Below are positions 39,343 to 40,082 of a DNA stretch of 41,015 nucleotides, one piece after another (the first letter of the stretch is position 1; each line of letters begins with the position of its first letter). This DNA is from a virus. Lineage: Duplodnaviria > Heunggongvirae > Uroviricota > Caudoviricetes. Both the position numbers and the translations under genes were made by a program. The notes beneath the pieces are model-generated. The model ran no database searches. It was not told the origin of the DNA and saw only the letters and a program-made list of their open reading frames with translations. The DNA lies in IMG/VR virus record IMGVR_UViG_2537561977_000014. One strand, given 5' to 3'.

Positions 39343-39461
39343 TCAGTTAAAGCCGATGGACAAATGGCTTTGTTAAAAGAAATAAGTAGGAGTTTTTATG
39401 AAGTTCATTCCATGAAATGAACTTCAGCACTTTTTTATTATAAAAGGACAAACAAAATTGG

Positions 39462-39477
39462 CTGTAAAAAACGATAC
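39462..39477 (-). promoter_or_regulatory. MxiE-box-like motif with downstream TATAAT (39437-39442) in the ipaH promoter region
   Basis: Minus-strand GTATCGTTTTTTACAG versus remembered consensus GTATCGTTTTTTTANAG; ~120 nt upstream of the ipaH ATG; TATAAT ~20 nt downstream of the box. Confidence 0.55.
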
Positions 39478-39923
39478 TGTTTCAGTTAACTGTGAATAGC
39501 TTGCTTGCACCGTATTGTTCTTGTTTTTCGGTTAGTTAAACATCGTACTTCATATTTGAACGTTCTGCCGGAATGCATTATCAATAGAGGTAAAGTCGCA
39601 ACCCCAAATCGTAAAGGAAACCGTAGCACGTCGTATGCAAGAACGTGCCACGGCTGGCTGATGGATGTTCGATAGCGCGAGTTTGAATGAAAATCAGCCG
39701 GAGATGATTTTACATAATTGCTACGGAATTATTCAATACAGGAATTGCTTGCGTCTGCATGGATTGACCTGAAATTTTCCCGAAAATTTCTCTAAAAAAC
39801 TCGAAAAAAATGGTAACTGGTTGAATGTATTAATATGCAATGGTACGTGTCAGGGATTAAAAGATGAACGTAAATTTATTCAACGCATTAATTTTAAAGG
39901 GTTTTATTGTTTGTTGACGAAAA

Positions 39924-39950
39924 CAGGAATCGTGTTCGGTCTCTTTTTAT
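39924..39950 (+). ncRNA. Possible SdsR (RyeB) sRNA 3'-end remnant/terminator hairpin upstream of pphA
   Basis: ACAGGAATCGTGTTCGGTCTCTTTTT resembles the remembered 3' terminus of E. coli SdsR; only the 3' ~25 nt matches. Confidence 0.3.
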
Positions 39951-40082
39951 CTGTTAAAAGCCAGAAACATTCCCTTCGCTGACTTTATAGTCAACCATAA
40001 CACACACTCTACTGTCTGAGTCCAGTGTTTTTTAACATTTTTGTTAAGATTATGTGATCTTTAGCGCGGGAGGAAAATATTG

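Follow-up and report, generated by a model that had tools for sequence, protein, structure and literature searches.

The window analyzed here is a 41,015-nucleotide stretch of virus DNA (Caudoviricetes; IMG/VR record IMGVR_UViG_2537561977_000014), and our subject is the gap that separates an ipaH gene from the chromosomal gene pphA near its right end. By the positions of the open reading frames (ORFs), the ipaH start codon ends at 39342 and the pphA ATG begins at 40083, leaving 740 bp (39343-40082) in which the GC content is 0.31-0.445, compared with 0.45-0.60 in the flanking genes (200-nt windows). We conclude with high confidence that this gap contains the right-hand attachment site (attR) of a lambdoid prophage of the lambda-Int family that carries ipaH and occupies the 3' end of the small RNA (sRNA) gene sdsR, also known as ryeB, which lies between yebY and pphA and overlaps the antisense gene ryeA (sraC). 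A first-pass annotation, made from the sequence alone, had described an AT-rich, non-coding interval of about 740 bp; its size and composition are as described, and none of the three small ORFs within it (47-56 amino acids) has a Pfam match, but the gap is not empty, as it includes a CssrB homologue and the ipaH promoter. Positions 39343-39917 are prophage DNA, consisting of the ipaHc promoter and leader, CssrB, a two-hairpin element and the P arm of the attachment site, and the sequence from 39949 onwards is chromosome. The principal features are as follows.

37627-39342, minus strand: ipaHc (ipaH3) coding sequence, a 1716-bp ORF of 571 amino acids encoding a type III secretion system E3 ubiquitin ligase.
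39714-39917, no strand assigned: AT-rich P arm of the phage attachment site; in phage PP818812.1 it runs without a break into the core and the integrase gene int, and 227 E. coli genomes share it.
39918-39948, plus strand: attR core, the 3'-terminal 31 nt of sdsR/ryeB, exact at 39923-39948, with the probable crossover within 39923-39933 (ACAGGAATCGT).
39949-40082, no strand assigned: host DNA, with the ryeA/sraC promoter, the first ~38 nt of RyeA and the pphA leader; four single-nucleotide polymorphisms (SNPs) lie outside the -35 and -10 elements.
40083-40739, plus strand: pphA, an ORF that is the first core gene to the right of the prophage and is annotated pphA in every matching genome.

Comparison with chromosomes of E. 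coli locates the boundary precisely. A megablast search with 39343-41015 as query found matches in all 5,426 complete E. coli genomes, with which the window is collinear to the right of 39918, and in nearly all of them homology begins at query position 576, placing the synteny breakpoint at 39918. Alignment to a prophage-free pphA-sdsR-yebY region, as had been suggested in the first-pass annotation, gives the same junction, within the terminal hairpin of sdsR: a K-12-like locus (in the order yebY, SdsR at 114 bits, RyeA at 175 bits, pphA) is unrelated to the window left of 39918 and near-perfectly matched from the sdsR terminator to pphA, with the four SNPs falling within 39949-40082. The segment ACAGGAATCGTGTTCGGTCTCTTTTT (39923-39948) occurs only once in the window (none expected, from 100 shuffles) and is identical to the last 26 nt of SdsR/RyeB in the K-12-like genome; with one mismatch allowed the match grows to 31 nt, starting at 39918. 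The right prophage boundary thus lies within the gap, as proposed at first pass, inside the last bases of sdsR, and the resemblance to the terminal ~25 nt of SdsR that had been noted there turns out to be an exact identity. Because there is a breakpoint in this interval, an intact sdsR elsewhere does not count against an integration event; an intact copy at the left-hand attachment site (attL) is what integration predicts.

The nature of the junction is illustrated by a four-way comparison of attachment sites, using the bacterial site (attB) of the K-12-like genome, the phage site (attP) of the free phage PP818812.1, attL of FDAARGOS_943, a relative resembling enteroinvasive E. coli (EIEC), and attR of the window. 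The attB sequence reads ...GGACCGAATACAGGAATCGTGTTCGGTCTCTTTTTATCTG and attP reads ...GTTGACGAAAACAGGAATCGTATTCGGTCTTTTTTTAATTG. FDAARGOS_943 attL consists of the left part of attB, recognizable by a host-type T, and the right part of attP, with its phage-type A and T; in the window, attR joins the left part of attP (phage-type A) to the right part of attB (host-type G and C). Within the attR core, 39918-39922 are accordingly phage-type and 39934-39948 host-type. This reciprocal pattern is as expected for one site-specific crossover inside ACAGGAATCGT, an 11-nt identity at 39923-39933, these limits being deduced from the alignment. The attR core is found in eight other genomes, seven of which are further genomes encoding an identical IpaHc protein. 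In one of the eight, GCA_901482675.2, the position equivalent to 39922 carries the host-type T (CGAATAC), and the window and the other seven genomes have the phage-type A; a different crossover point, mutation or gene conversion could account for this, and the left limit of exchange is therefore not absolute.

Both reference elements have the gene order that integration at this site calls for. In PP818812.1 the order is tail-fibre genes, P arm, core, P' arm and int, and a 324-nt stretch 85% identical to window positions 39626-39949 is followed by int; its integrase (Int) is 98.3% identical to that of the FDAARGOS_943 prophage. FDAARGOS_943 is the closest complete relative, its attR region differing from the window at two positions over 630 nt. 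Its order is yebY, full SdsR (118 bits), attL, int, the excisionase gene xis, and, ~47 kb downstream of this yebY/sdsR/int end, ipaH3, attR and pphA. It also retains the repeated core at the int-side end, as attL. In the P arm of the window, CCCGAAA(A)TT-like repeats with counterparts in the P' arm at attL supply three candidate arm-type integrase sites, with integrase binding predicted from the repeats.

39768-39778, 39779-39789 and 39800-39809: candidate arm-type integrase sites, CCCGAAA(A)TT-like repeats.

The phage attP bears a near-copy of the last ~31 nt of sdsR, and we propose that strands were exchanged within ACAGGAATCGT, presumably by the integrase. The body of sdsR would stay at attL, beyond the prophage, with a terminator donated by the phage, and the original 3' end of the host gene (39923/39934-39948) would be stranded at attR and joined to the phage P arm. 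Since attL is the left of attB with the right of attP and attR is the reverse, sdsR at attL ends in phage sequence and the window keeps the host 3' end. On this scheme, attL of the source genome would read yebY, full sdsR, CGAATACAGGAATCGTATTCGGTCTTTTTTTA and then the 3' part of int.

What remains of sdsR in the window appears to have no function of its own. The first-pass annotation had pointed to a hairpin plus U-run, and the loop, the 3' arm and the U-run are indeed those of host sdsR, but the 5' arm is phage sequence and poorly complementary. The 45-nt remnant folds at -5.5 kcal/mol (z-score +0.41), no better than shuffled sequence, compared with -15.8 kcal/mol for the intact sdsR terminator at attB and at attL alike, and a terminator scan detects the sdsR hairpin at both of those sites and not in the window. 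Neither a full SdsR nor a full RyeA reaches the Rfam gathering threshold anywhere in the window: in a permissive search SdsR_RyeB (RF00111) scores 19.7 bits against a threshold of 38, where the controls at the attB locus and at FDAARGOS_943 attL score 114 and 118 bits, and SraC_RyeA (RF00101) scores 26.1 bits against 37, with only the promoter and the first ~69 nt of host sequence present; the terminal hairpin region alone accounts for both of the low scores. These same observations bear on the proposal that the SdsR-like 3' end works independently, either as a truncated sRNA or as a terminator insulating pphA from prophage transcription such as read-through from CssrB. In its favor, the terminator keeps its U-run and 3' arm undamaged, and CssrB lies upstream on the same strand and has no U-tail after its last hairpin; the replaced 5' arm, the weak fold, the silence of the terminator scan, the sub-threshold SdsR score and the lack of an sdsR promoter or body upstream of the remnant nonetheless make it very unlikely. 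The remnant is neither an sdsR gene nor a working terminator, and is dead.

The sdsR site is occupied in a small minority of genomes. Of the 5,426 genomes, 5,189 have an uninterrupted match to a 251-nt probe spanning attB and the other 237 (4.4%) have it split, and the P arm of the window is shared by 227 of the 237 split-site genomes, with different cargo. In strains R1 and U90 a prophage occupies the sdsR site without ipaH. An alternative is that the boundary between chromosome and foreign DNA lies elsewhere, for example at ~39612, and that ipaH forms an independent islet next to pphA and is not part of a prophage. The ipaH cassette is in fact a discrete insertion, in that ipaH-less prophages (strain R1 and phage pPE4) align only from 39612/39626 and the cassette edge coincides with the stop codon of the tail-fibre-assembly gene (tfa) of relatives. 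However, 39612-39917 is absent from the 5,189 genomes with an intact attB and is contiguous with int in the free phage, so that it is P-arm DNA with the cassette inside the prophage, and we regard a separate islet as extremely improbable. We give almost no credence to a third possibility, that the junction arose by a rearrangement or deletion mediated by insertion sequences (IS), as is common in Shigella, and that the sdsR match is a leftover: IS1 and other IS elements are abundant in this prophage family and the prophage body is mosaic, but no IS end is present at the junction, the attL/attR/attP/attB pattern is reciprocal with a crossover within an 11-nt identity, and the same junction is found in 227 E. 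coli genomes with different cargo.

The left end of the window carries the following features.

1-417 (end approximate), no strand assigned: partial IS1 with an InsB-like ORF at 13-408, which truncates int and ends the view of the left prophage end.
402-983, minus strand: excisionase (Xis) fused to the N-terminal arm-binding domain of Int, a 193-amino-acid ORF with Pfam matches to Exc (2.8e-13) and Arm-DNA-bind_1 (1.4e-06).

Alignment to FDAARGOS_943 shows that the fusion results from a single-base deletion in a T-run of the xis/int overlap. Homology to the FDAARGOS_943 int begins directly after the IS1 terminal repeat; the part of int that is retained is essentially identical and the rest is missing. 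As IS1 disrupts int, the prophage is very probably locked in and unable to excise. The prophage body (~4956-38409) shares 99.8% identity with another prophage of FDAARGOS_943, which carries ipaHb and lies at 2.05-2.09 Mb; the match stops inside the conserved C-terminal half of ipaH. Both ends of the element, with int/xis and with ipaHc-attR, match the FDAARGOS_943 prophage at the sdsR site; this arrangement suggests segment exchange between paralogous ipaH prophages. The simple equation of the window prophage with the FDAARGOS_943 sdsR-site prophage is rejected for the body, which is best matched by the other prophage there. Further Rfam matches within the prophage include the antitoxin sRNA RalA at 203.9 bits, opposite a ralR-like ORF (1079-1257), sRNA-Xcc1 at 5917-6006 on the minus strand (67.4 bits), sok/CssrC at 13310-13485 (117 bits), and a cluster of four tRNA genes at 15840-16147.

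Three points weigh against the interpretation of the junction as attR of a prophage at sdsR. First, the IS1 at the left edge hides the window's own attL and sdsR, no second copy of the att core (three or fewer mismatches) is present in the window, and duplication of the core is seen in relatives only. Second, the source of attP is a phage record with a doubtful host label; PP818812.1 is recorded as 'Actinobacillus phage vB_Apl-pPE4', despite an attP that matches E. coli sdsR. Third, the element is a mosaic, and its continuity from int to attR may stem in part from recombination between paralogous prophages. The mosaicism has no effect on the junction itself.

Integration also has potential consequences for the chromosomal side. 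Primer BHIA+10R and the +132 coordinate in PMC6610125 put the most downstream RyeA start at about 39986 (minus strand), and the sigma-70 ryeA promoter, ~38 nt of RyeA and the 31-nt core thus remain, now directed at the P arm, beyond which lie the hairpins and then ipaHc. Most pphA transcription in K-12 comes from the sigma-S sdsR promoter by read-through, and transcription of ryeA represses the gene (PMC6610125); in the lysogen, the sdsR promoter would be separated from pphA by the whole prophage. The stranded ryeA promoter would now transcribe into the prophage, and pphA would lose the read-through from the sdsR promoter. Because the target of integration is overlapped by an antisense sRNA, insertion would rewire both the antisense pair and pphA, the gene reached by read-through. 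It is possible, although we put this forward tentatively, that the rewiring of this toxin/antitoxin-like sRNA pair and its neighbor goes further, with a chimeric RyeA-type RNA of ~370 nt, an uncoupled pphA and a reassignment of the CssrB hairpin. Such a chimeric RNA would still be complementary to the SdsR 3' end over 26-31 nt; it would traverse the P arm, terminate at hairpin 39619-39655 and be antisense to CssrB where the two overlap; pphA would be freed from stationary-phase control and exposed to transcription leaving the prophage through the crippled terminator.

In Shigella and Salmonella, SraC is reported to be lengthened by ~35 nt and to have its -10 box displaced (Frohlich et al., PMC3333887). 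We note that the DNA downstream of sdsR in lysogens is phage-derived, as in the P' arm at FDAARGOS_943 attL (locus positions 2517-2647), and the longer SraC/RyeA of Shigella and Salmonella may come from a phage-borne promoter at attL. A consensus promoter scan found no ryeA promoter at attL or in the window, a result that is uninformative because the scan misses even the mapped K-12 promoter.

Between the P arm and the ipaH cassette lies an element of two stable hairpins.

39612-39713, no strand assigned: two-hairpin element, with hairpin 1 at 39619-39655 and hairpin 2 at 39656-39699, marking the right edge of the ipaH cassette.

The hairpins fold at -23.5 kcal/mol (z-score -2.98) and -33.9 kcal/mol (z-score -3.23), and the sequence from 39612 onwards is common to ~100 lambdoid phage records. 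In ipaH-less relatives the point equivalent to 39612 is 3 nt past the tfa stop codon, which identifies the ipaH cassette as a moron that entered between tfa and the two-hairpin element. In a set of 56 distinct contexts, compensatory changes affect the outer pairs of hairpin 1, and in the two most variable of them 37 cells pair on the minus strand only and 6 on the plus strand only, an asymmetry of G.U and A.C pairs. This hints that hairpin 1 acts in transcripts running from int towards the tail genes, like lambda tI/sib, and differs from the plus-strand 3' hairpin of the Rfam CssrB model; points against a minus-strand reading are that hairpin 2 gives mild evidence in the opposite direction and that the sequences compared share ancestry. 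The element of HK97 is situated after tfa and before the annotated sib site, beside sib rather than on it, and comparison of 39612-39713 with the lambda sib/tI region gave no meaningful similarity, so that its sib-like status is positional only. The hairpin filed by Rfam as the 3' end of CssrB may nevertheless be a minus-strand terminator or processing site in the int direction, shared by lambdoid phages.

The remainder of the gap is occupied by the ipaHc leader and promoter and by a divergent sRNA homologue.

39399-39426, minus strand: stem-loop in the ipaHc 5' untranslated region (UTR), a 12-bp hairpin; the 85-nt UTR folds at -19.1 kcal/mol (z-score -3.96).
39437-39442, minus strand: ipaHc -10 box, a perfect TATAAT as read from the sequence.
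39462-39477, minus strand: MxiE box, GTATCGTTTTTTACAG, compared with the 17-bp consensus GTATCGTTTTTTTAnAG, and one T short (T6 rather than T7).
39470-39652, plus strand: CssrB homologue (RF02799), 151.6 bits against a gathering threshold of 76, full length (model positions 1-180), divergent from ipaH.

The ipaH ORF is annotated ipaH3/Hc in FDAARGOS_943, LRR_TTSS and NEL domains are on record for the identical protein, and 1716 bp is the size given for ipaHc in Table 1 of PMC3299695; ipaHc is moron cargo at the right end of the prophage. Its transcription probably starts near 39430, as the stem-loop would then lie at +5 to +32 and the MxiE box ~33 bp upstream of +1, as in PMC3299695. A stem-loop at the 5' end of the messenger RNA (mRNA) is described there as an mRNA-stabilizing element for ipaH9.8 and ipaHc; the terminator scan reports only a plus-strand look-alike of this stem-loop. 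The MxiE box is positioned as expected for an MxiE-regulated promoter and has a 1-nt deletion relative to FDAARGOS_943; an ungapped search for the consensus (PMC9769918) found no match, the box differing by an indel and not by substitutions. The T7 run is present in 13 of 13 comparators, made up of five E. coli genomes (including FDAARGOS_943), the seven genomes with identical IpaHc and a separate FDAARGOS_943 locus alignment, and the T6 box is either a strain-specific promoter lesion or a homopolymer sequencing error. Only five E. coli genomes carry the ipaHc promoter. The original cssrB, for which a ~180-nt Northern band is reported, lies upstream of SF2022 (ipaH4) in the same divergent layout (PMC3071730). 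The locus therefore resembles the Shigella chromosomal ipaH loci at prophage ends (Bongrand 2012, PMC3299695; Peng 2011, PMC3071730) in its 1716-bp ipaHc, -10 box, 5'-UTR stem-loop and divergent CssrB-like sequence, and differs from those with MxiE-box promoters in that the T7 run here is one T short.

This attR is ordinary, its attachment site being of a class already known: integration at Salmonella ryeB was described in 2008. As far as Balbontin et al. (2008, J Bacteriol 190:4075) are cited in PMC7380047, Salmonella phage PhiW104 integrates in the last 23 bp of ryeB, inside ryeA, and its lysogeny lowers ryeA transcription and raises that of ryeB; the ryeB 3'-end site is also noted in PMC3333887 and PMC3603311. 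The description of the sdsR locus in the first-pass annotation as a hot spot for foreign DNA agrees with this work as it is cited in these three sources. To the extent that the Salmonella site, with PhiW104 and phage remnants, is described in them, it involves the same host gene and the same end, with a core that spans the 3' arm of the terminator and the U-run, and integration there likewise restores sdsR on one side of the insert and cuts off the 5' part of ryeA and its promoter on the other. The case reported here differs in its Shigella/EIEC-type E. coli host and its ipaHc cargo, and the RyeA and SdsR levels given in that account were measured in Salmonella; moreover, the closest Salmonella prophage Int in the phage collection compared shares only 72.7% identity with this Int.

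Other parallels are more general. The lambda-type att architecture is shared in that int and xis adjoin P', in the AT-rich P arm of ~200 bp with short repeated candidate arm sites, in a stable hairpin ~265 nt from the core on the strand of the int transcript, and in an Int with the lambda Arm-DNA-binding domain, whereas the core sequence is unrelated to that of lambda and Int is ~42% identical to HK022 Int. Phages that insert at the 3' ends of tRNA or tmRNA genes offer another parallel, since here too the phage brings its own version of the final segment of a small structured RNA gene, and the gene is left intact with a 3' remnant at the far junction; unlike those cases, the target is a regulatory sRNA overlapped by an antisense sRNA.

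Finally, these findings provide the exact right boundary of an ipaH prophage in a Shigella/EIEC-type genome, information that can serve both annotation and prophage typing. What novelty there is, and it is mild, lies in the predicted rewiring of ryeA and pphA, in the MxiE box with its missing T and in the question of which strand the conserved hairpin acts on, and the consequences for ryeA and pphA, which are plausible, would extend known biology rather than raise a new question. The sdsR attachment site described in Salmonella is also used in E. coli, where the phage would supply a working sdsR terminator and leave the original 3' end as a dead remnant beside pphA.
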